Part shown: in pieces, positions 1 to 46,643 of the stretch
Numbering within the stretch: position 1 is the stretch's first letter
Layout: each line of letters begins with the position of its first letter
Origin: a virus
DNA length: 64,000 bases
Reading direction: 5' to 3' (one strand)
Virus record (IMG/VR): IMGVR_UViG_3300009165_000006
Translations under genes and position numbers: made by a program
The notes under the pieces: model-generated
Databases searched by the model: none
What the model was told of the DNA's origin: nothing
The model's input: only the letters and a program-made list of their open reading frames with translations

Positions 1-1572
1 AAGATCAACTTCAGGAAGGGCAGGATTCGACGGTCTTACACAGCTCTCTATGCGAAGAGGGACTCTCGTAGGGTTAGGCAAGGTAAGCTAGCTCTACCCT
101 CTTACCGTCATCACATGATGCGATTGAACAGTAATGCCGAGAGTGCCATCCTGGCAGTGATTTTCTTCGGTAAGGATTGGGTAGTGTTCGATCTTCGGGG
201 TCTACTTCGAAACGTTCGATGGCGTAACTTGTTTGTTGATGGGTCAACCCCCAGCACCTTGCTCGGCATGTTCGGGGATCCAGTGATTGACCCCAAGCGT
301 GGAGTTGTGGCCTTCTGCTACAAGGAGCAGATAGTCCCAGTTGTTTCGAAGTCGATCACGAAGATGGTCAAAGCACCGGAGTTATTGAACAAGCTCTACC
401 TAAAAAGTGAGGATCCCTTAGTTCTAGTGGCTATAGATCTAGGTCAAACTAACCCTGTGGGGGTTGGAGTCTATCGAGTGATGAATGCTAGCCTCGACTA
501 TGAGGTTGTTACTCGGTTCGCCTTGGAGTCGGAACTACTCCGTGAAATTGAGTCCTACCGACAGAGAACGAATGCATTCGAGGCTCAGATCAGAGCTGAG
601 ACTTTTGATGCAATGACTTCAGAAGAACAAGAGGAGATTACCCGGGTTAGGGCGTTCTCAGCATCGAAGGCGAAGGAGAATGTGTGCCATCGATTCGGAA
701 TGCCTGTTGATGCCGTGGATTGGGCTACAATGGGATCAAATACCATTCACATAGCCAAATGGGTGATGCGTCACGGTGACCCAAGTTTAGTTGAGGTGCT
801 CGAGTACAGAAAAGACAACGAGATCAAGCTAGATAAGAATGGGGTACCCAAGAAAGTCAAGTTGACGGACAAGAGGATTGCCAACCTGACCAGTATTAGA
901 TTGAGGTTCTCCCAAGAGACCAGCAAGCATTACAACGATACGATGTGGGAGCTGAGACGTAAGCATCCGGTCTACCAGAAGTTGTCCAAGAGCAAGGCAG
1001 ACTTCTCTCGTCGAGTGGTGAACTCCATTATTAGGAGGGTCAATCACCTAGTTCCACGAGCGAGGATTGTATTTATCATCGAGGATCTGAAGAACCTCGG
1101 CAAAGTGTTTCATGGAAGTGGAAAACGCGAGCTCGGTTGGGATTCCTACTTTGAACCAAAGAGTGAAAACCGATGGTTCATCCAGGTGCTTCATAAGGCT
1201 TTCAGCGAGACTGGTAAGCATAAGGGGTACTACATCATAGAGTGTTGGCCAAACTGGACTAGCTGCACATGCCCTAAGTGCAGTTGCTGTGACTCTGAGA
1301 ATCGCCATGGTGAGGTATTCCGGTGCTTAGCCTGCGGATATACTTGCAATACGGATTTTGGTACAGCCCCAGACAACCTAGTCAAAATTGCTACTACAGG
1401 TAAGGGTCTGCCCGGGCCGAAAAAGAGATGCAAAGGGTCCAGTAAGGGGAAAAACCCTAAGATCGCTCGATCGAGCGAAACCGGTGTATCTGTTACCGAA
1501 TCAGGTGCACCAAAGGTCAAAAAGAGTAGCCCAACTCAAACGAGTCAGAGCTCCTCGCAATCTGCGCCCTAA
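1..1572 (+). CDS. cas12j: Cas12j (CasPhi)-like RNA-guided nuclease, 5'-truncated by window edge
   Basis: Frame is open from nt 1. Colinear with CasPhi-2 as I recall it: DWVVFDLRGLLRNVRWR, LVAIDLGQTNP (RuvC-I D), IIEDL (RuvC-II E), GSGKRELGWD..ENRWFIQVLHKAFS, CPKC...CLACG..CNTD (Zn ribbon/RuvC-III). CRISPR array starts 33 nt downstream. Confidence 0.9.
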   Translation, partial: KINFRKGRIRRSYTALYAKRDSRRVRQGKLALPSYRHHMMRLNSNAESAILAVIFFGKDWVVFDLRGLLRNVRWRNLFVDGSTPSTLLGMFGDPVIDPKRGVVAFCYKEQIVPVVSKSITKMVKAPELLNKLYLKSEDPLVLVAIDLGQTNPVGVGVYRVMNASLDYEVVTRFALESELLREIESYRQRTNAFEAQIRAETFDAMTSEEQEEITRVRAFSASKAKENVCHRFGMPVDAVDWATMGSNTIHIAKWVMRHGDPSLVEVLEYRKDNEIKLDKNGVPKKVKLTDKRIANLTSIRLRFSQETSKHYNDTMWELRRKHPVYQKLSKSKADFSRRVVNSIIRRVNHLVPRARIVFIIEDLKNLGKVFHGSGKRELGWDSYFEPKSENRWFIQVLHKAFSETGKHKGYYIIECWPNWTSCTCPKCSCCDSENRHGEVFRCLACGYTCNTDFGTAPDNLVKIATTGKGLPGPKKRCKGSSKGKNPKIARSSETGVSVTESGAPKVKKSSPTQTSQSSSQSAP

Positions 1573-1604
1573 GTCACCTAGATCATTGATAACTCCAGGA
1601 GCTA

Positions 1605-1936
1605 GGATCCAATCCTTTTTGATTGCCCAATTCGTTGGGACTACCCCAAAAAGATCCACGAGGCCCGAGTGATCGACGGATCCAATCCTTTTTGATTGCC
1701 CAATTCGTTGGGACGATGACACTCTGGGTTCCCCAAGCCGGCCACGTTTTCCAAGGATCCAATCCTTTTTGATTGCCCAATTCGTTGGGACTAGGCACCT
1801 TCGGAGAGGTTCGACTGGGCAGCCTTGGATCCAATCCTTTTTGATTGCCCAATTCGTTGGGACATATCGCTTTGTCGGACGCTGAGTTCGAGATGATTAG
1901 GGATCCAACCCTTTTGATTGCCCAATTCGTTGGGAC
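1605..1936 (+). CRISPR. CRISPR array, 5 repeats / 4 spacers, CasPhi-type repeat
   Basis: 37-nt repeat GGATCCAATCCTTTTTGATTGCCCAATTCGTTGGGAC at 1605, 1678, 1755 and 1827. Degenerate 36-nt copy at 1901. Spacers are 36, 40, 35 and 37 nt. The 3' part (GATTGCCC..hairpin CCCAA/TTGGG..GGGAC) resembles the CasPhi-2 repeat end. Same strand as cas12j. Confidence 0.95.
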
Positions 1937-2452
1937 CAGTCTTATTCCTCCTACGAGCATTACACGGTCCTCGAGAACGTGGCCCTCGGTCTGAGGTACC
2001 GAGGGATCCCAAAGAAAGAACGAGAAGCCAAAGCCATGGAGATGATCGTCAAGGTCGGTCTCGAGGGGCATGAGCACAAGTTCGCCAAGTACCCGGACCT
2101 CTCAGGCGGGCAACTCCAACGTGTAGCCATTGCTCGAAGCATCGCCTACGACAGCCGGATCCTCCTAATGGACGAACCCTTTGGAGCCCTTGACCTCGAG
2201 ACTCGTAGCCAGATGCAGGAGATGATCGCTCAATTGTGGTTGAGCATCACCCCTACCATCATCATGGTGACCCATGACATTTCGGAGGCGGTCTACTTGG
2301 GTGATACCATCTATGTGATGGGTAGAAACCCTGGAAACCTCAAGAGGAGTTTCATCTCGCCTTTGCCTCTTGAGCGGAACAAAAGTATGAAACGTAGCCC
2401 TGAATTCACTCGAACTGTTCAAGATATCGAAGACTACATGTCCTCGATATGA
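1937..2452 (+). pseudogene. ABC transporter ATP-binding protein fragment (C-terminal ~170 aa, Walker A missing)
   Basis: In-frame translation starts directly after the last repeat at the Q-loop: QSYSSYEHYTVLENVALGL. Then the signature LSGGQLQRVAIARS, Walker B/D-loop ILLMDEPFGALD and H-loop MVTHD. No N-terminal P-loop region is present. Confidence 0.8.
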
Positions 2453-2484
2453 CTCTTTGCTCACCGAGGAAACGGCAAGACGAT

Positions 2485-3015
2485 TCAGACTTTCCTTCTC
2501 AAGTATTCAATTCGCTCTTGCGTTTTTTGGAGCTCTTCAGGTGAGTACATGTCGAGGTTGACTCTGAGATTGGTTTCGAGAGCTTCCAACTCTCTGCGAG
2601 CCTGGTATTTGGCTTCCGCGGCACGACTTCTGGGTTTAATCAGATACTGGATTTTCCCTTTTAGCTTACGCTTAGCTACGATAGTACCGATAGGGGTTTC
2701 GGTACCAATAGGGATAGATCTAAGAGTAAACGTGGGTCCGAAGTCACTATCGAAACCATGTCCCTCGATTTTGGCGTTTTCCTCTTGGATGAAGCATCCA
2801 TCTTTCCAAGGTTTGTCTGCCTCATCCTTTGGGATCCGCTCTGGTTTGCCAGGTCTACCGCTCTTTGAGAAGTACTGAACCTCTACGGTAGAGTCCAGGT
2901 AGCGCTGTTTAACCTTTTGCGCTTCAGCGTGTTTGTAATCCGACTCCCACTGCTGGTAAACCTTTTTGAGGTTTACCGGGCCTTTTTGGAGTGGACCGGC
3001 TTCGATGGAGATCAA
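2485..3015 (-). CDS. hypothetical protein (start uncertain)
   Basis: 176-aa ORF with TTG start, Lys/Glu-rich, no motif recognised. The upstream in-frame stretch lacks ATG. Lies between the two copies of the 63-nt ABC 3'-end repeat. Confidence 0.5.
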   Translation of the reverse strand: MISIEAGPLQKGPVNLKKVYQQWESDYKHAEAQKVKQRYLDSTVEVQYFSKSGRPGKPERIPKDEADKPWKDGCFIQEENAKIEGHGFDSDFGPTFTLRSIPIGTETPIGTIVAKRKLKGKIQYLIKPRSRAAEAKYQARRELEALETNLRVNLDMYSPEELQKTQERIEYLRRKV

Positions 3016-3211
3016 TCTTTGGATGCTTCCTGGGGCACCCTGTCCGAACTTCCCGTTATCATCAAACTCTGTATTCTCTAACTCCTATGAAAGTGGTCCA
3101 GTACTCACCTTGAGATGGGAGTGACTTAGCCTTGTCGACCAGAGCTTGGATAACTTCGCTTTTCACCTCCTAGTTGTAGTATAAGAACAAAAACTAGGTA
3201 CGTTCAAGGGC

Positions 3212-3274
3212 GAATTCACTCAAACTGTTCAAACCATCGAGGACTATGTGTCCTCGATGTAGTCCTTTGTTCAC
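3212..3274 (+). repeat. Second, diverged copy of the ABC-ATPase 3' end (direct repeat of 2402-2464)
   Basis: GAATTCACTCAAACTGTTCAAACCATCGAGGACTATGTGTCCTCGATGTAG... aligns with 2402-2464. It translates to EFTQTVQTIEDYVSSM*, versus EFTRTVQDIEDYMSSI* for copy 1. Confidence 0.8.
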
Positions 3275-3408
3275 ACATCGGAACGTTATCGAGAGCCACA
3301 GATCTTCAATCCAACTTTCAGTATGCCCCTTAGGCAAATTCTACTTATAATTGTTTCCGTTTGTCCTACTTAGAGGGACGGACACACTATAAGTCTAGAA
3401 AGGAAAGT

Positions 3409-4029
3409 ATGGGACTAGCTCATTTGAACATTTGGGTCCGGAATCGAAACTGTGACCTACTAACCGATATGTGGCGTACTGATTTGGTCATTCAAGCCTG
3501 TACCGGCACGTACCTGGTTGACATTTGGCCGGAGATCTTAAGCCAATTGCAGACTCGGTATCCTACTTACACGATACTGAGTCACTTCTACCAAGGGGCT
3601 CAACGGATCATGATGATGCCGCCGTCAGGGACCTTCTTCAATCACATTGAGGTTGATATCCCTCCTGGCTGTTACAAGGTGTGGACTCGTTGCTGTCACG
3701 GACAGAACGAGGAGACCTCAGTTCAGTTGATCTCTCCACGATGCGGGGAGGAAGCTTGCGTGAATCTGTTGCTGCCGTCTCTCAAGGTATGTGCCCAACA
3801 GATTGTGCACCCGCTCATCGACCATATCGCTGTTCAGGGGGCCTTCCCGGCGGTGGCTGATAGGCTCGTCATTCTGAAAGGGGTGATGTACGCAGGGGAC
3901 ATTGGTCGAGCCCTTTTGCTTGAGCAGTTGCAGTACCGCTTGTCTGAGGCTGTGGCGAAGGGAGACACGGCTCTGCAGGCTCGTGTCAATGCCGTGATAG
4001 CTCTTGCCGATCAGCTTCCAGCTTGCTGA
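3409..4029 (+). CDS. hypothetical protein
   Basis: ORF track 3361..4029. I prefer the ATG at 3409, preceded by AGGAAAG. Cys-rich middle, no family recognised. Confidence 0.6.
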   Translation: MGLAHLNIWVRNRNCDLLTDMWRTDLVIQACTGTYLVDIWPEILSQLQTRYPTYTILSHFYQGAQRIMMMPPSGTFFNHIEVDIPPGCYKVWTRCCHGQNEETSVQLISPRCGEEACVNLLLPSLKVCAQQIVHPLIDHIAVQGAFPAVADRLVILKGVMYAGDIGRALLLEQLQYRLSEAVAKGDTALQARVNAVIALADQLPAC

Positions 4030-4048
4030 TAGTTTGCATCGGAATGTT

Positions 4049-4078
4049 GAAGGGGTCCCTCTGAGTGGGGTCCCCTTC
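4049..4078 (+). terminator. stem-loop downstream of 3409..4029
   Basis: GAAGGGG (4049-4055) pairs with CCCCTTC (4072-4078), 16-nt loop, followed by GCATTT. Weak U-tract. Confidence 0.35.
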
Positions 4079-4281
4079 GCATTTAACACGCTGGCTGTAC
4101 AGTGGTTCGGGACGATATCTCGGGGACTGCGAAGGAGCTACGGGAGTCAGCGGCATCATCTTTGAGCGAGTAGCCTCGATCTCGATCTCGACTGGTCATT
4201 GACTTTACCAGGTCAGAGAAAGCGTGCTACGGTGCGAAGACGTCAAGGGCCGAATATCCTGAACTCACCCTGTAAAACATC

Positions 4282-4569
4282 ATGATCGAAGTACATATTG
4301 ACTTAAACTTATTCGAGATCACTCGAACAGAGGGGGTTCCAGACAACCCTCACGAAAATATCTACTTGGAATTGATCTCTATCCTCTGGAGTGTCAAGGA
4401 ACAAGCTTCAAACTCCTTGGTACTTTTAGCCCTCGGCTCTTACCTGACTCAGAAGTACCCATCAATCCCATGGAAGGTCGTAGCCTTCGTTGACAATGTT
4501 GAGGTGAGTCGACTCGAGTTCCAAAGCTTGGATGAGAGTGCTCCAATCTCCCGCCTAAGATCCGGTTAG
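4282..4569 (+). CDS. hypothetical protein
   Basis: 95-aa ORF, ATG start, no motif recognised. Confidence 0.5.
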   Translation: MIEVHIDLNLFEITRTEGVPDNPHENIYLELISILWSVKEQASNSLVLLALGSYLTQKYPSIPWKVVAFVDNVEVSRLEFQSLDESAPISRLRSG

Positions 4570-4599
4570 GTCTAAACAGATCGGTGTATTTAGACCACT

Positions 4600-5082
4600 A
4601 TGCCAGAAAGTACCATTCCAACTCTCGCAGTACTCGAAGTTGTGGGTTTTGACCAATTCCGTGAGGTAGTAGCCGTCAAGGAATCAGGTTCAAATCGAGT
4701 AAAGTACCTCACCGCTGTGAGTGGTTCTCAGAAGTCATTCGTCGATGTTAGGACTAAGAATGGTCAGATCTTTCGACTTCCAGTAGATCAAGATAGCTAT
4801 GAAGCTATCTGCGAGGATACAATGTCCAACAAAGGTAGTCGTCAAATCAAGAACGTATCTGGGCACCCGCTTCCTAGCTCCTATGCGCGAGATCGAGCTA
4901 AGGAGTATCAAGAGAGGTATGGGTCTCTTGATTCTATCGACTTCAAACGAGCGTGGGCTGAGGCTCAGATGCTCGACTCCACACTACCCCCGAACCCTCC
5001 CAAATATGTCCCTGAGGAAGCTCAGAAGGCCATCACTCTACTGGCTCGGAGAATTCTCAAACTCGAATCGGAGTGGTCATGA
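4600..5082 (+). CDS. hypothetical protein
   Basis: 160-aa ORF, ATG start, protein-like composition. Confidence 0.6.
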   Translation: MPESTIPTLAVLEVVGFDQFREVVAVKESGSNRVKYLTAVSGSQKSFVDVRTKNGQIFRLPVDQDSYEAICEDTMSNKGSRQIKNVSGHPLPSSYARDRAKEYQERYGSLDSIDFKRAWAEAQMLDSTLPPNPPKYVPEEAQKAITLLARRILKLESEWS

Positions 5083-5127
5083 TAGAGACTGCGTGTACTT
5101 GAATGCCAAGTTTGGCCCAGGAAATTC

Positions 5128-5553
5128 ATGCTCCTCTCAAGCCCCCAACGTTTGACTTGGATTTACCTCGTGTTCCAGGATACTCCACCAACATGTGGGG
5201 AGTACGTCGACCCAAAGGGAATCCACTGGCATGTTCGAAACGTGATCCGGGAGCCTGGAGTTGTCCTGCGAGAACCAGCCCCACCGGCATGGTATGTCGA
5301 GATAGCTGCGGACCACCCAGCTTACCAGCTCGAACCCGGATGGGAGCTCCGAAGGTTCTTTAGGCCCGACGAGATTGCTCTTCACCGAGAGCACCTGACG
5401 AACAGCATTCGAAGGATGAGGATCCCAGGATTCGAGTTCGTTGGAGTCTCAGAGGATGAACTCACTCTCGTGGCCAACTTTCAAGGAGTCACTAAGGCTT
5501 CAGGAGTCCCTGATGAGATCGATGGAATGCCGGTTACCATCAATTTCAGGTGA
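5128..5553 (+). CDS. hypothetical protein
   Basis: 141-aa ORF. The competing frame 5103..5363 is Pro/Arg-rich and looks spurious. Confidence 0.5.
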   Translation: MLLSSPQRLTWIYLVFQDTPPTCGEYVDPKGIHWHVRNVIREPGVVLREPAPPAWYVEIAADHPAYQLEPGWELRRFFRPDEIALHREHLTNSIRRMRIPGFEFVGVSEDELTLVANFQGVTKASGVPDEIDGMPVTINFR

Positions 5554-5557
5554 AATC

Positions 5558-5797
5558 ATGAGCTGCAAGTACGAGATAACCATCCTACACCCCAAGTATC
5601 GTGATGATGTAATGGTGTGGAACACAGTATTTAGGTCCGATACATTAACATTGACTGTTCTCAAGCGAAAGATTGATATTGCTCATGAGCTTGGTTTACC
5701 GACGACTGCAGCATATAGTAAAGGTAGTCTAGGTACTGGGAAAATCGTTGAGATGTTTGGTGAGCCTCAGTTCTTCGAGGTGGTAAAGGTTTCCTAG
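5558..5797 (+). CDS. hypothetical protein
   Basis: ATG at 5558, 5 nt after the previous stop (track ORF 5441..5797, internal start MSCKYEITIL). Confidence 0.5.
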   Translation: MSCKYEITILHPKYRDDVMVWNTVFRSDTLTLTVLKRKIDIAHELGLPTTAAYSKGSLGTGKIVEMFGEPQFFEVVKVS

Positions 5798-5825
5798 GTT
5801 ATACAAGCGTCCGGATCTGTCAGCT

Positions 5826-6221
5826 CTACGGTAATACGCTCTGGGGGACTTTAGAGGTATCGTTACGCACCTCCCAGGATACCTCTCCCTCGTCTAACCA
5901 CTTGTAGAAGACCTGGCCTCTTCCGACTTGGTTTCGAACAAGATTTGGCTCACCAAGGTGCACCAAGGCCAAGCAATCATCGGGTACCCCTCTGGACATA
6001 TAGATCTTGGCTCCACGGAAGGTTCCCATGAATCCGATCTTCAGCGAAGCAGGATTCGATTCGGACTCAATCGTGTAGATGTCTCTTCCCCATTTGCGGA
6101 TGTCAGCATATGTACAAGGAGACACCCAGACGTATTCAATCTCAGGAGTTAGCATTCCTCCGAGGATATCAGGAGTTAGCACGTAGGCTCGTTTGACTTC
6201 TTCTCTTTCGATGATGACCAT
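5826..6221 (-). CDS. hypothetical protein
   Basis: 131-aa ORF, ATG start. Confidence 0.6.
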   Translation of the reverse strand: MVIIEREEVKRAYVLTPDILGGMLTPEIEYVWVSPCTYADIRKWGRDIYTIESESNPASLKIGFMGTFRGAKIYMSRGVPDDCLALVHLGEPNLVRNQVGRGQVFYKWLDEGEVSWEVRNDTSKVPQSVLP

Positions 6222-6819: not shown

Positions 6820-6910
6820 AAAAGTAGGCTGAGTGCTCAATAACCCTTGGCACCAGAGAGCATACACCAAGAACTTGCTGTTTCCTAGTCATTCAAGTAC
6901 ATTCCGGGGC

Positions 6911-10933: not shown

Positions 10934-11193
10934 GTAACAGACCACCCGCGCTCGAGCGATCGTAGAACCCGGCGAACAGCCCGATCGGCTCCGACAAATT
11001 GGTCCGATCGGAACTTGAGGTTCGGGTGAAGTTCGTGCTCTGAGGTGAAGAACGGATTGCTCGCCCCATCCTGGAAGTACTCAGCGAACCACTCGGTGGT
11101 ATAGCTGTAAGAAAGGGTGGCTCGGTAAGGTGGTATCGAGTATTCCCATGTGTTGTCGGGCTTCAAGTCCCGGGCGATGGCCTTCGGTCTCAT
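10930..11193 (-). CDS. hypothetical protein
   Basis: 87-aa ORF. 4-nt overlap with the upstream gene 11190..11411. Confidence 0.5.
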   Translation of the reverse strand: MRPKAIARDLKPDNTWEYSIPPYRATLSYSYTTEWFAEYFQDGASNPFFTSEHELHPNLKFRSDQFVGADRAVRRVLRSLERGWSVT

Positions 11194-11448: not shown

Positions 11449-11916
11449 TCACGTTTCTACATGAAACCTACGAAGGCCTATGACGAACGTCATACCGCAC
11501 CCCATTTTTCTACCTTGCTCGTACCAACACCCATTCTTTCGAAGAGTTATGATTCTGACCTCACCCTTCGCATCCCGAATGGCCTCGAGCCCCCCATCCT
11601 TTTCTGAGTGAACGACCAGATCTTGTTGAATGATGAGGGTCTTGTAGCTCAAGAATCTAATGATCGTGTACGGATAGTAATCCGTACCCCAATGGAAGGT
11701 CACCCCCATGCCTATTGCCGGCTCTGGGGTCTGTTTTGCCCACTGTGCCACCAAATCGAGAACGGATGTTTCGGTGTTTGGGCTGTCAATTTCTCCAGGC
11801 CCCCTAAGGTAGAGGCGAATTCCATCCAAACTAACCCAACTCACTTTGGTCATCCGTCCATCAACGTTACAATAGACGGTACCTTCGGAGTCGATTGATA
11901 GGCTTTCTGTTGCCAT
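11449..11916 (-). CDS. hypothetical protein
   Basis: 155-aa ORF, ATG start. Confidence 0.6.
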   Translation of the reverse strand: MATESLSIDSEGTVYCNVDGRMTKVSWVSLDGIRLYLRGPGEIDSPNTETSVLDLVAQWAKQTPEPAIGMGVTFHWGTDYYPYTIIRFLSYKTLIIQQDLVVHSEKDGGLEAIRDAKGEVRIITLRKNGCWYEQGRKMGCGMTFVIGLRRFHVET

Positions 11917-20931: not shown

Positions 20932-21561
20932 ATGTTCTTCTGGTTCGGATTGGCCCCTTGGATCTGGGGGTTTGAATTTGTACTGTTTGTAGGGCTTATT
21001 GTGCTAGTCGAATTCGAGTTCTACAAGTGGTCCACCGCAACCCTCATAGGAGCTCTCGTACTGAGTCACTTCCTGCATGCGTTCTCAGTAGTGGATCTAG
21101 TAAGGCATAACCCTGGAACCTCCTTTATCGTAGTCCTGAGCTATTTCCCTGCGGGCACCATATGGGCAACCTTCAAGTGGTTCTTGTTCCTCTATCGGTT
21201 CAAGGACGCCAGGATGGATGCCTTGGATGAGTTCCATGATATTCAGGAAGCGGCTCGAGCTCGAATCGCTTCGGGTGCTGTCTACACAATGGATGAGGAG
21301 TTGGTCAATAAGACGGATTACCAGTATTTGCGTAGCCAATACTTCAAGAAGACCAACCTTTCGAAGATCCCACGTGTCCGTGACTACAAGAGGAAGGTTA
21401 TCGGTTGGATTGCGTTCTGCGTGTTTTCGATAGTTGGCACTATCTTCCACGACCTGGTTCGTAGGATCGCACTCTGGATCTACAATCGAGTCAGCAGTTT
21501 CCTTCAGTGGATGTCAAATCGGATTATCTCCGAGGTGGAAGAAATACCTGAAAAGACCTAG
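20932..21561 (+). CDS. membrane protein
   Basis: 209-aa ORF with several hydrophobic helices (FFWFGLAPWIWGFEFVLFVGLIVLV, ...). Confidence 0.65.
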   Translation: MFFWFGLAPWIWGFEFVLFVGLIVLVEFEFYKWSTATLIGALVLSHFLHAFSVVDLVRHNPGTSFIVVLSYFPAGTIWATFKWFLFLYRFKDARMDALDEFHDIQEAARARIASGAVYTMDEELVNKTDYQYLRSQYFKKTNLSKIPRVRDYKRKVIGWIAFCVFSIVGTIFHDLVRRIALWIYNRVSSFLQWMSNRIISEVEEIPEKT

Positions 21562-22451
21562 TGAACCAAGGTTCGCTCGAAGGCCTCGTTGTTGAGCACA
21601 ATCATGATGGAGGGTGGATCCGGAGCGTTCGCTTGACGAGTTGACTCATCGTACTCGTGGCAACCCCACTCACCCTTCTCCATGTAAGGTTGAACTCTTA
21701 CCCATGTTCCGATACTTGGATCAATGGCTGCAGCAGCCGCTATTGTGTCGTGAAGGGCCTTCCCCTCTGGGCGCTTTTTGAAGTAAAAAGCCATCCCTTC
21801 CTTGATGAGGTCAAGCCCAGCATGGGCTCCGGAAGGGATTCTCTCATTGACCATAGGACCCCAGAAGACACCGTGACAAACGTTCTTGGAAACCATCCGT
21901 CGAGTCCAGATAGGTGAGTTTTTACCCAGTAAACCGAGGGCTGCTTTCGAGTCGCCCCCAAGGTTGAAGGTCGGACAGGTGAGCTTGCCGGCGAACTTGG
22001 GTAGCCGGTGTTCGGGTGGGACGATGTTGTCTCCGGCGAAGCCACCCTGGCAAGTCCACGTACGGAAAAACGGCCACACCTCACTGCTAGCCTTCCAGAT
22101 GTTGGTGAGGGCCGCTCCAGTGATTAGGTGGGTGGTTGGAAAGTCCAGTAGTACCTGCTTAATGACCTCAGTGGCGCTTCCCTGGGGCTGACAGGGGGAG
22201 ATCTTCCCAAGCCAATCATAGTGGAACTGGGACACCTTAGAAGTTTGCTTCTTGAGGCTCCCAATTCCGATAGGCACGTCCGTCCGCCCAAGACGATCGA
22301 GGACATGACGAACTATCCCGACCTGGTCGAAACCTCCTGGATGGATCGTAGCCCCAACGAGTTTGGCTCGGGGATGAGTAGCAAGGAGCGCTAGAGTGAA
22401 CACGTCATCTGGGTCACTCGTTTCCATGTCGAACAGATATTCTTGAGTCAC
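21558..22451 (-). CDS. nucleoside hydrolase-like (IU-NH family) protein
   Basis: N-terminal DMETSDPDDVFTLALL resembles the D.D...DD motif. ALHDTIAAAAAIDPSI resembles the family's LHD..A...a.dP block. GTG start. Confidence 0.6.
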   Translation of the reverse strand: MTQEYLFDMETSDPDDVFTLALLATHPRAKLVGATIHPGGFDQVGIVRHVLDRLGRTDVPIGIGSLKKQTSKVSQFHYDWLGKISPCQPQGSATEVIKQVLLDFPTTHLITGAALTNIWKASSEVWPFFRTWTCQGGFAGDNIVPPEHRLPKFAGKLTCPTFNLGGDSKAALGLLGKNSPIWTRRMVSKNVCHGVFWGPMVNERIPSGAHAGLDLIKEGMAFYFKKRPEGKALHDTIAAAAAIDPSIGTWVRVQPYMEKGEWGCHEYDESTRQANAPDPPSIMIVLNNEAFERTLVH

Positions 22452-45249: not shown

Positions 45250-45520
45250 TGAACCTCGATAAGAACTATCGCACGCCTTGACTCCAGTGACGAACTGTGA
45301 ACCGCTTCAACCACTCTTACGCGCGAGCTTGTCTGAATCTCAACTAAATTGAGTATAGCCTTCCAAAAGACCGTTCTGTGAAACTTATTCAAAGTTGCTC
45401 ATAGGAGAACTCCGATGTTCACTTCCTGCTTCAACGAGACATGACTCGTAGGCCGAAGGGTTCTCCTTCGTTCCGCCGCTAGAGGACTCTCCACAGGCTT
45501 TTTAGCGCCGAAGGCGCCTA
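45250..45520 (-). ncRNA. predicted omega RNA (reRNA) region of the TnpB element
   Basis: By analogy with IS200/605 TnpB loci, the guide RNA scaffold overlaps the tnpB 3' end and the right end. The 154-nt non-coding stretch after the stop contains the hairpin CTCAA-CTAAA-TTGAG (45339-45353). Boundaries are not determinable by eye. Confidence 0.35.
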
Positions 45521-46643
45521 GGTTCCTCGGGAACTCCGAGTACCTTTCCAAATTCTTCGCCGCATTCTCATCTCGATCATGAATAGCTCCACATCCTTCA
45601 CAAACCCACTCTCTCACAGAAAGAGCCAGCTGCGGCCGTTTAAGGCCGCAGCTGGTACATATCTTCGAGGATGGGAACCATCGATCAGCTACTTCTAGCT
45701 TAGATCCATACCAAGTGGTCTTGTAGGAAAGTAGCCTCTTACTTTCAAACCACCCTTGGTCCAAGATCGACCGAGAAAGGTGAGGATTCTTACTCATTCC
45801 ACGAATACCAAGGTCTTCCACAACGATGGCTGACTTGGTTTTCGCCAGCCCCGTTGTGAACTTATGAAGGAAATCCCTTCGAACGTTTGCTACTCGTGAG
45901 TGAATCCTCGCTAATCTTTGAGCTGATTTCCTCCTATTTGACGAACCCTTACGCTTCCTCGAATGAGAGCGTTGAGCCCTTCTTAACCGACTTAACGCTT
46001 GTTTCAATGGATTCGGGGCATGTATCTTCGTACAGGCCCCGTCCGAAGAGACCGTAGCGAAAGTAAGAATCCCTAGATCTACCCCAGCTTTTGGTCCTTG
46101 GATAGGAATAGGATCCGTCACGACCTCAACGGTATTGACGGATACGAACCATCGATCTGCTACCCTCGAAATCGTAGCTGAAAGGATCTCCCCACTAATC
46201 CTGCCGTTGATCTTCTCTTTGGTTCGAATAGTCCCAAGCCTAGGGAGCTTAATATACCTAGTTTGTGGCTCAATTGAACCATAGAGACGGAAGGAATCCT
46301 TTGATTTATGCTTCTTTTTGAACTTTGGGAAGCCAACTCCTTCTGATCTTCTGGACCAGAAAGCTTTGAAAGCTTTGTCAAGATCACGAAGAGCTTCCTG
46401 AGGGGCACACTTGGAAACCTCGTACATCCAAGGGAAGTCAGGGCCCTTGCGGGCGTTGAGGTCCCGATGTTCAGCGATGGCGTTGGTGAACTTCTCCTTA
46501 CCTTCTTGGGTTCGGAAGCGTTCGATCCTCCTTTGGAGGGACCAATTCCAAGCGAAGCGAGCCGTTCCGGCATGCTTCGCCAAGAACGTCCGAACCCGAT
46601 TGTTCGGATCTAACTCGAACTTATACGCCTTCCGAAGTTCCAT
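45399..46643 (-). CDS. tnpB: TnpB (IS200/IS605 OrfB-family RNA-guided endonuclease)
   Basis: MELRKAYKFELDPN...FLAKHAGTARFAWNW (OrfB N-terminus), RuvC-I GVDLGILTFAT, RuvC-II AIVVEDLGIRGM, Zn finger CTSCG...CEGCG, RuvC-III HDRDENAAKNL. Confidence 0.92.
   Translation of the reverse strand: MELRKAYKFELDPNNRVRTFLAKHAGTARFAWNWSLQRRIERFRTQEGKEKFTNAIAEHRDLNARKGPDFPWMYEVSKCAPQEALRDLDKAFKAFWSRRSEGVGFPKFKKKHKSKDSFRLYGSIEPQTRYIKLPRLGTIRTKEKINGRISGEILSATISRVADRWFVSVNTVEVVTDPIPIQGPKAGVDLGILTFATVSSDGACTKIHAPNPLKQALSRLRRAQRSHSRKRKGSSNRRKSAQRLARIHSRVANVRRDFLHKFTTGLAKTKSAIVVEDLGIRGMSKNPHLSRSILDQGWFESKRLLSYKTTWYGSKLEVADRWFPSSKICTSCGLKRPQLALSVREWVCEGCGAIHDRDENAAKNLERYSEFPRNLGAFGAKKPVESPLAAERRRTLRPTSHVSLKQEVNIGVLL

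Follow-up and report, generated by a model that had tools for sequence, protein, structure and literature searches.

A phage Cas12j array that ends in an ABC transporter ATPase remnant, a candidate for flank-guided, homing-like cassette spread

Cas12j (CasPhi) loci have been described from Biggiephages (Al-Shayeb 2020 PMC7162821; Carabias 2021 PMC8298400). CRISPR arrays in phages are compact, lack acquisition genes and are directed at competing phages (PMC7162821), and the protospacer-adjacent motif (PAM) of Cas12j is TTN/TBN (PMC8298400; PMC12841931). Here we describe a Cas12j locus in a 64,000-nt stretch of viral DNA, IMG/VR record IMGVR_UViG_3300009165_000006 (referred to as the window), whose CRISPR array runs without a gap into the remnant of an ATP-binding cassette (ABC) ATPase gene. 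The locus resembles those of the Biggiephages in its full-length alignment to CasPhi-2 and CasPhi-3, its compact array, its phage context, a 36–37-nt repeat that ends in a hairpin and ..GAC, and the lack of Cas1, Cas2 and Cas4 nearby. It differs from them in that the array ends in a gene remnant, the intact form of which is PAM-flanked in relatives, and in that the common ancestor of the cassette is much younger than that of its flanks.

Several other systems bear on this arrangement. With Cas12a, the terminal repeat of a synthetic array and the DNA downstream of it yield a functional 'extraneous' CRISPR RNA (crRNA) as long as the hairpin is free of mutations (Liao et al. 2019, PMC6610086); among the 14 native Cas12a terminal repeats examined there, 11 (79%) have changes that should disrupt such a crRNA (PMC6610086). 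The present locus has the same repeat-then-spacer polarity, and the handle of its terminal repeat is preserved. In contrast to the Cas12a case, a natural PAM-flanked target of the downstream DNA exists in relatives, and the crRNA is predicted from sequence. In the homing of IS200/IS605 elements by the omega-RNA of TnpB/IscB, the DNA flanking the element serves as guide, against the unoccupied allele as target (Meers et al. 2023 PMC10055086; Karvelis 2021 PMC8612924). The likeness to our locus is one of anatomy only, as the candidate guide is the 3' flank and a PAM, or transposon-associated motif, lies directly 5' of the target in the empty allele. For the predicted outcome here, in which a break induces copying of the element, the inference draws on no more than two genomes. 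In contrast to TnpB homing, there is no scarless left end, the operon and the 5' half of the ABC gene are gone, and a full CRISPR-Cas cassette is involved, in a phage. No TnpA (Y1 transposase Pfam) match appears in the gene lists around the cassette, there are no left or right element ends (LE/RE), and the only IS605-type gene of the window is an unrelated TnpB at 45399–46643.

Recombination of targeting spacers with phage genomes has also been documented, for bacterial arrays and phages (Varble 2019, Watson 2018, as cited in 10.1101/2020.10.09.333658). Such an event would yield a joint between a repeat and a protospacer flank of exactly the form found in the window. Unlike those cases, the exchange here would be between two phages or within one genome, and the postulated spacer is not found in the recovered arrays. 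Virus-borne mini-CRISPR arrays are short, target closely related viruses and carry true spacers that work with host Cas proteins (Medvedeva 2019, PMC6858448), whereas in our locus a flank is the candidate guide and the phage itself encodes the nuclease.

The array contains five direct repeats, with 3' ends at 1641, 1714, 1791, 1863 and 1936. The last one (1901–1936, plus strand) is a degenerate, 36-nt terminal repeat, with a T>C change at repeat position 9 and one T fewer in the T-run. Both changes lie 5' of position -21, and the 21-nt handle at the 3' end, GATTGCCCAATTCGTTGGGAC, equals the consensus. This handle carries C-1, A-2, G-17 and U-18, the positions contacted in Cas12j3 (PMC8298400). 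A truncated ABC ATPase gene of the NitT/TauT family follows directly (1937–2452, plus strand), comprising residues 100–270 and the stop codon. Its frame reads QSYSSYEHYTVLENVALGL... from 1937 and is open to the native stop at 2450–2452. Full-length relatives of 270 aa read ...IGMIFQSYSSYEHY..., and the homology starts at the Gln of the Q-loop, residue 100. The breakpoint is uncertain by 1 nt, as C1936 is either the last base of the repeat or the C of the Phe codon TTC.

The Pfam ABC_tran match on the fragment covers profile positions 71–136 of 137 only. The fragment retains the Q-loop Gln (QSY...), LSGGQLQRV, the Walker B/D-loop ILLMDEPFGALD and the H-loop VTHD, and its nearest solved relatives are NrtD and CmpD. 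Without Walker A, it is an ABC ATPase remnant and no functional member of the family. An earlier reading of the letters alone (the sequence-only reading) had placed the exact fusion of terminal repeat and Q-loop here, with homology from 1937 to the natural stop at 2452 and the P-loop half absent. All of this holds, and the terminal repeat abuts codon Q100 at 1937 in six assemblies (the window, L003, L004, L016, L017 and L015), which represent two variants. Because the joint is identical in L003, L004, L016 and L017, which come from other samples and show 100% identity through it, and also in the diverged L015, it is no assembly artefact; the concern that the contig might be chimeric at this point is not borne out.

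We compared the joint with the intact alleles. At the 10 loci examined, the base triplet 5' of the breakpoint is a Phe codon, TTC in seven and TTT in three, which agrees with the expectation from sequence alone that a Phe codon before the Gln would supply a T-rich, PAM-like flank. The intact allele of L012, for example, has TTC and then CAGTCCTATTCC... at the breakpoint site. At the own locus, the GAC of the repeat precedes the flank and is not a PAM. Since the terminal repeat keeps its 3' crRNA handle and the intact alleles carry the PAM-like TTC or TTT, the ABC flank occupies the position of a last spacer, with its first 36 nt at 1937–1972 (plus strand). The L015 version of this flank matches the intact L012, L013 and L014 alleles at 20/20 and 35/36 nt, with TTC directly 5', a match that follows from common ancestry and is not independent evidence of targeting. 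Judged by these features, the joint site appears to have the anatomy of a Cas12j protospacer in the intact alleles. Two other short ATPases were considered as independent truncations, and neither is an array joint: P0032 (a 161-aa 'truncated ATPase') is a database artefact, positions 1–18 of ENA contig L023 being the Nextera adapter GATGTGTATAAGAGACAG, and P0080 is a full-length gene with an in-frame stop.

The closest full-length ATPases (94–95% aa identity) are found in huge-phage contigs made up of many small unannotated genes. In these contigs the intact ATPase is the last gene of an operon with the order substrate-binding protein (SBP), permease, (DUF6733), ATPase, the DUF6733-like protein being usually present. 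This context is seen in L001, L008–L012 and L018–L020, and L008–L011 are IMG/VR huge-phage contigs of 62–435 kb. The importer operon is complete in at least eight huge-phage contigs, including L001 (6960–10813), L012 (6919–10813), L018 (2382–6252) and L008–L011. Its binding protein is about 515 aa long with NMT1 and OmpA domains, and two conserved genes of about 212 and 337 aa lie upstream of the operon. Matches that are named bacterial by source reach only 60–63% identity to the fragment. Starting at the ABC gene, the sister phage L002 runs collinear to the window at 87–90% nt identity; its ATPase is intact and has the permease upstream.

No SBP, permease or DUF6733 homolog occurs in the 64-kb window (tblastn with the L001 proteins, all of which were found in L008–L011). 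Because relatives carry the whole operon and the window has none of its other genes, the fragment at 1937–2452 is the stranded 3' end of a NitT/TauT importer operon that this phage lineage has lost, and it is not host DNA. A clean insertion, with the 5' half of the ABC gene displaced to the upstream side of the cas gene, is excluded by the unrelated genes found there in L006 and L015. Separately, L022 (896–1720) carries an ATPase gene with an in-frame stop (…VALG followed by the stop) and no permease upstream, which is an independent decay of the module. The window itself has accessory genes typical of huge phages between 14105 and 62007, namely a lipocalin/CrtC-like gene (14105), an ADP-ribosylglycohydrolase (22443), an 850-aa MVP-shoulder protein (30749), a radical SAM enzyme (54241) and a CCA-adding tRNA nucleotidyltransferase (58123), while the 64 kb contain no tRNA gene.

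Comparison of the window with L015, for which we extended the window leftward with L006, revealed a sharp step of divergence at the joint. The cassette, from about 70 nt upstream of cas to the last base of the terminal repeat, differs at only 8 of 2816 nt (99.7% identity), and the leader and array, which account for 364 nt of it, show no difference at all. The ABC fragment differs at 40 of 516 nt (7.8%; Fisher p = 1e-25 against the cassette), and the first difference is at 1942. A maximum-likelihood change-point falls at 1942, with 95% support for 1917–1942. To the right of the fragment, the two sequences are 88–98% identical. On the left of the cassette there is a non-homologous replacement, beyond which the identity is 94.6%.

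The 40 differences in the fragment are distributed as 34.5 synonymous to 5.5 non-synonymous. The ratio of non-synonymous to synonymous rates (dN/dS) is 0.036, with p = 7e-17 against neutrality, and lies within the range of comparisons between intact genes (0.024–0.049). When the changes are polarised against four intact alleles, those derived in L015 number 0 non-synonymous to 7 synonymous (p = 3e-5 under neutrality), and those derived in the window 3 to 4. Since both variants are truncated and yet differ almost purely at synonymous sites, a single old truncation followed by neutral decay is excluded. Either the stump is under coding selection, or the sequence up to the joint derives recently from intact alleles, or the joint has formed repeatedly; one of the three must apply. 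The flank has evolved as an intact gene under selection does, and until a short time ago it belonged to one. Conversion by an intact paralog within one genome is unsupported, as the best full-length protein reaches 95% aa and 89% nt identity. No full-length paralog with at least 97% identity was found, and no full-length protein has the residues specific to the window or to L015.

Quartet site patterns of 9 vs 2 and 7 vs 2, which are small numbers at saturated synonymous sites, give a hint that the two fragments may draw on different allele lineages. The heptamer GACCAGT stands at both edges of the cassette in L015 (9928–9934 and 12744–12750), which may be chance, as 22 kb contain it 8 times. 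At L015 9809–9838, a degenerate repeat scores 22, against 20 for the 95th percentile of the null, and is too weak to use. In the wider surroundings, a block of about 2.7 kb with a minus-strand gene of about 650 aa lies right after a 206-aa gene in L002 (2901–5558) and corresponds to L015 1604–4256, 8 kb upstream of cas; it is absent at window 4096–4280. The placement of this block shows that blocks have been rearranged around the locus.

We favour, tentatively, the idea that recombination at a protospacer, directed by a guide or spacer, produced the joint in a homing-like exchange of the cassette; this may well be right, although it falls somewhat short of probable. The joint would then be the crossover of an ABC-derived terminal spacer with its protospacer, or the repair product of a Cas12j cut, and not a random breakage. 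The terminal repeat with its handle might be processed together with the flank into a candidate 'extraneous' crRNA, whose guide would be the ABC sequence. Such a crRNA would spare its own locus, where GAC offers no PAM, and would direct the cutting of intact alleles in co-infecting relatives. Where a co-infecting relative is cut, recombination would be favoured at a distance of a few to about 25 nt from the joint, which is where the switch between alleles occurs. Recombination stimulated by the break could join the cassette to a fresh ABC tail, deleting the operon and spreading the cassette, as TnpB or a homing endonuclease does. A cassette attached to the tail of a gene that had just been working would explain the synonymous bias.

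The stronger form of this proposal, in which the cassette acts as a gene drive or RNA-guided homing element, a crRNA of terminal repeat and ABC stump cuts the intact transporter gene of co-infecting relatives and repair from the genome with the cassette puts the cassette in place of their operon, we consider unlikely on present evidence. If true, the TnpB habit of using one's own flank as guide would have been retained, or have evolved anew, in a CRISPR system.

Several observations weigh against directed recombination. The guide of the window has a derived mismatch, T1942 at position 6, to all intact alleles. A true spacer with the flank sequence, bounded by repeats, is absent from the recovered arrays; those of the window, L015, L016 and L017 all have the same four spacers and the same joint. 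No protospacers were found for these four spacers (PAM-proximal 20-mers, exact, in IMG/VR), so that natural targets yield no PAM for this ortholog. Folding of the terminal repeat by itself gives no predicted handle hairpin, and its missing T could impair 5' processing. The left side shows no scarless insertion, with unrelated small genes upstream of cas in L006 and L015. The two fragments are mutually closest, at 92.2%, as against 89% or less to any intact allele, and they have six derived changes and an identical last 120 nt in common, which fits one common origin and later mosaicism. Only two diverged variants are at hand, so 'recurrent' rests on n = 2. Perfectly conserved repeats are, moreover, natural crossover islands in diverged DNA, which by itself could explain why a mosaic boundary lies at the terminal repeat.

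Ordinary mosaicism is the strongest competitor. It supposes one illegitimate deletion or insertion that ended at the repeat boundary by chance, leaving the ABC stump as dead DNA without guide function; the cassette would later have been swapped by homologous recombination, with the terminal repeat as the last island of identity, and the flank refreshed from intact alleles of other phages. The clade is visibly mosaic, with rearranged blocks in L002, L012 and L015 and alternating segments of 88–100% identity, and the derived changes and last 120 nt common to both fragments sit easily with this account. Further decay in the clade (the frameshift of a neighbouring gene and the decaying duplicate of the ABC tail, described below, and the in-frame stop in the L022 ATPase) and the partly relaxed constraint of the window lineage (3 non-synonymous to 4 synonymous changes) agree with it too. 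The account needs several things to coincide, however: the breakpoint falls exactly at the 3' end of the repeat, the intact allele has a PAM there, the handle is preserved and the divergence step lies no more than 26 nt from the joint. Refreshing the flank would also require a left crossover within the first 5–47 nt of homology, since homology to the intact alleles ends at 1937. On balance we regard mosaicism as a serious alternative that probably does not hold. An improbable further option is that the truncation is single and old, that a fragment of 157 aa (GTG 1979) or 138 aa (ATG 2036) is expressed and selected, for example as a dominant-negative partner of the nucleotide-binding domains (NBDs) of the host or of rival phages, and that the cassette exchange was a separate, recent event. 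In both variants an open frame extends from 1937 to the native stop, dN/dS between the two is low (0.036), and gene callers predict the 138- or 157-aa products. The N-terminal strands of the RecA-like core belong to the established architecture of ABC NBDs, and a fragment that lacks them as well as Walker A is doubtful to fold stably. The constraint equals that of full-length genes and shows no new pattern; 10 of the 11 changes upstream of ATG 2036 are synonymous, which the 138-aa product cannot explain, and the divergence step at the joint is left unaccounted for.

It was also suggested from sequence alone that a spacer directed at the host had recombined with its protospacer in the host chromosome, bringing host DNA into the end of the array. 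The exact truncation at the spacer position, the T-rich 5' flank of the intact gene and the documented recombination between spacers and phage genomes (Varble 2019) speak for an event of this form, and that part of the suggestion stands. The host as its source does not, because the closest intact genes belong to huge phages with synteny to the window and source-named bacterial matches do not exceed 63%; we consider host capture very improbable. The intact ABC gene in related genomes tells against that reading, but does not refute a spacer-protospacer crossover between phages, which is possible but unproven. The divergence step, for its part, might be an artefact if L015 were a strain-collapsed contig that switches strain at the repetitive array. 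CRISPR repeats do break or entangle assembly graphs (the array is where L003, L004 and L006 end), and L015 is a single contig from a single sample (3300081805). Two switches would be needed, though, as L015 is diverged, and in part non-homologous, on its left flank too, and the L015 cassette differs from the window type at 8 positions, so there is little chance of such an error. Even then only the discontinuity would vanish, and the joint, the PAM and the synonymous bias would remain.

The 3' end of the ABC gene is duplicated nearby. Copy 1 (2402–2464, plus strand) comprises the last 16 codons, the stop codon and 12 nt, and copy 2 (3212–3274, plus strand; EFTQTVQTIEDYVSSM followed by the stop TAG), which is also present in L015, is an orphan relic of the 3' end of another ABC allele. 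The recurrence of these 63 nt in diverged form had been noticed from the sequence alone and is confirmed: 50 of 63 nt are identical (79%), far beyond chance, and the similarity stops 12 nt past the stop codon. Copy 2 has an open frame, a stop changed from TGA to TAG, and Q and M as in L001. It looks like the tail of a different allele, left by an unequal exchange that brought a gene, here called gene X, beside the ATPase.

Gene X (2485–3168, minus strand) is a conserved hypothetical phage gene of 227 aa when intact, split in the window by a 2-nt deletion near 3085. The minus-strand open reading frame (ORF) at 2485–3015 that the sequence-only reading placed between the copies is there, but is only the larger piece of this gene. 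Gene X is intact in L002 and L015, has homologs of 53% identity elsewhere in L012, L013, L018 and L019, and has no Pfam or PHROG match; as it is a conserved phage gene without such a match, the idea of a mobile or integrase gene is rejected. In the sister phage L002, gene X also follows the intact ATPase, so it had arrived before the truncation and has no connection with the array. A second recombination between ABC paralogs had been proposed here, and the likeness of copy 2 to the tail of a different allele supports this, whereas the 747-bp insert as a new cassette tied to the array does not hold. Duplication of the 3' end of a target gene by an integrative element is likewise rejected, given no recombinase match in gene X, an identity of only 79% and the allele-type changes of copy 2. 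The duplicated tail is an older, independent recombination scar.

Copy 2 is decaying. Only about 20 nt of it are recognisable in L002, and in L015 it has an inverted hairpin loop and an early stop. The hairpin (window 3236–3258, stem ATCGAGGA/TCCTCGAT) has the 7-nt loop CTATGTG in the window and CACATAG in L015. This loop inversion is a mutation of the template-switch type and creates the stop codon in L015.

The Cas12j gene enters the window from the left (1–1572, plus strand), which holds the 3' 523 codons of a 793-aa protein, with the start 810 nt to the left. The product in the window equals residues 271–793 of P0121 (793 aa) at 100% identity. In a phmmer search against PDB, P0121 matches CasPhi-2 (7lys, 5e-140) over residues 19–784, a full-length match, followed by CasPhi-3 (7odf, 4e-134) and Cas12j-SF05 (8iew, 3e-128). 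The product also has a Pfam TNB domain match. The RuvC motifs AIDLG, IEDL and NTD are conserved at nt 430, 1075 and 1345, and AIDLGQTNP, IIEDL and CNTD of P0121 align with the motifs of CasPhi-2. By analogy with CasPhi-2, we take these to hold the catalytic residues D, E and D.

The cas stop codon is at 1570–1572, and the first repeat begins 33 nt later in the same orientation as cas, after a short leader or intergenic stretch (1573–1604, plus strand) that is 100% identical in L015. Repeats 1–4 (1605–1641, 1678–1714, 1755–1791 and 1827–1863; plus strand) are 37 nt each, GGATCCAATCCTTTTTGATTGCCCAATTCGTTGGGAC. Spacers 1–4 (1642–1677, 1715–1754, 1792–1826 and 1864–1900; plus strand) measure 36, 40, 35 and 37 nt, and are identical in the window, L015, L016 and L017. 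For the consensus repeat, a hairpin CCCAA-TTCG-TTGGG followed by AC is predicted, and it is predicted again for the terminal repeat with the flank attached. No Cas1, Cas2 or Cas4 Pfam match occurs in the precomputed gene annotations about 10 kb to either side in L015. In family terms, the locus is an ordinary Cas12j cassette.

Searches with parts of this region returned little. The four spacers have no meaningful match in the fetched loci or elsewhere in the window, and an 18-mer of the flank guide has no exact match in IMG/VR. The 23-mer and 21-mer from the 3' end of the repeat are absent from IMG/VR and the JGI metagenome collection. Megablast of window 1–6000 against INPHARED gave no match, an Rfam scan of 1400–3600 gave nothing, and no intrinsic terminator is predicted between the array and the ABC flank.

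Solitary repeats occur elsewhere in related loci. A partial repeat of 22 nt, TGATTGCCCAATTCGTTGGGAC, an exact copy of the crRNA handle, lies at L006 2014–2035, 110 nt upstream of the cas start codon and about 920–940 nt to the left of window position 1. A 39-nt, (CCTTT)4-rich stretch follows, and then the block that is near-identical to L015 starts. L015 lacks an upstream partial repeat of this type and has a different 559-nt segment there. This solitary repeat of L006 might act as a cr-like regulatory RNA or as a further flank-guide unit, or it may be a relic. In L007, a 61%-identical Cas12j homolog (a 495-aa ORF whose N-terminus is apparently degraded) has no array, and two solitary repeats at 6881–6909 and 11115–11143 have a common 29-nt core, CCCTGATTGATTGCCCAATTCGTTGGGAC. 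One stands 127 nt past the cas gene and the other immediately precedes a small gene's start codon; they might be read as Racr-like decoys (compare PMC10651486) or as single-guide units.

Further TNB-domain genes are present in both sequences. L015 has one at 21212–22382 (minus strand), 476 aa as called and about 9 kb downstream of the array, with no counterpart at the matching place of the window, where collinearity stops at 11565. The TnpB of the window (45399–46643, minus strand) is a canonical IS605-type protein with HTH_OrfB, OrfB_IS605 and TNB domains (PHROG transposase, 1e-106). Short stretches beside it match L015 5150–5320 and 15620–15679, the latter at the synteny break between the window and L015.

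Given a joint to the equivalent of a PAM-flanked protospacer, a terminal repeat whose handle is intact and a step of divergence at that joint, the locus is a candidate natural case of a CRISPR cassette that may spread among phages in a flank-guided, homing-like manner. It bears on how CRISPR-Cas cassettes without adaptation genes reach phage genomes and move between them, and on the role of the sequence behind a terminal repeat. If the flank does guide cleavage of intact alleles, the locus would link selfish homing in the style of TnpB, CRISPR interference between phages and the loss of an auxiliary metabolic operon, and a simple rule would serve to search for more cases, namely to inspect what the terminal repeat abuts. 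Under a conservative reading too, the complete NitT/TauT importer operon is a recurrent accessory module of huge phages that is repeatedly lost, and a Cas12j cassette whose ancestor is much younger than its surroundings is direct evidence of horizontal cassette exchange among phages.

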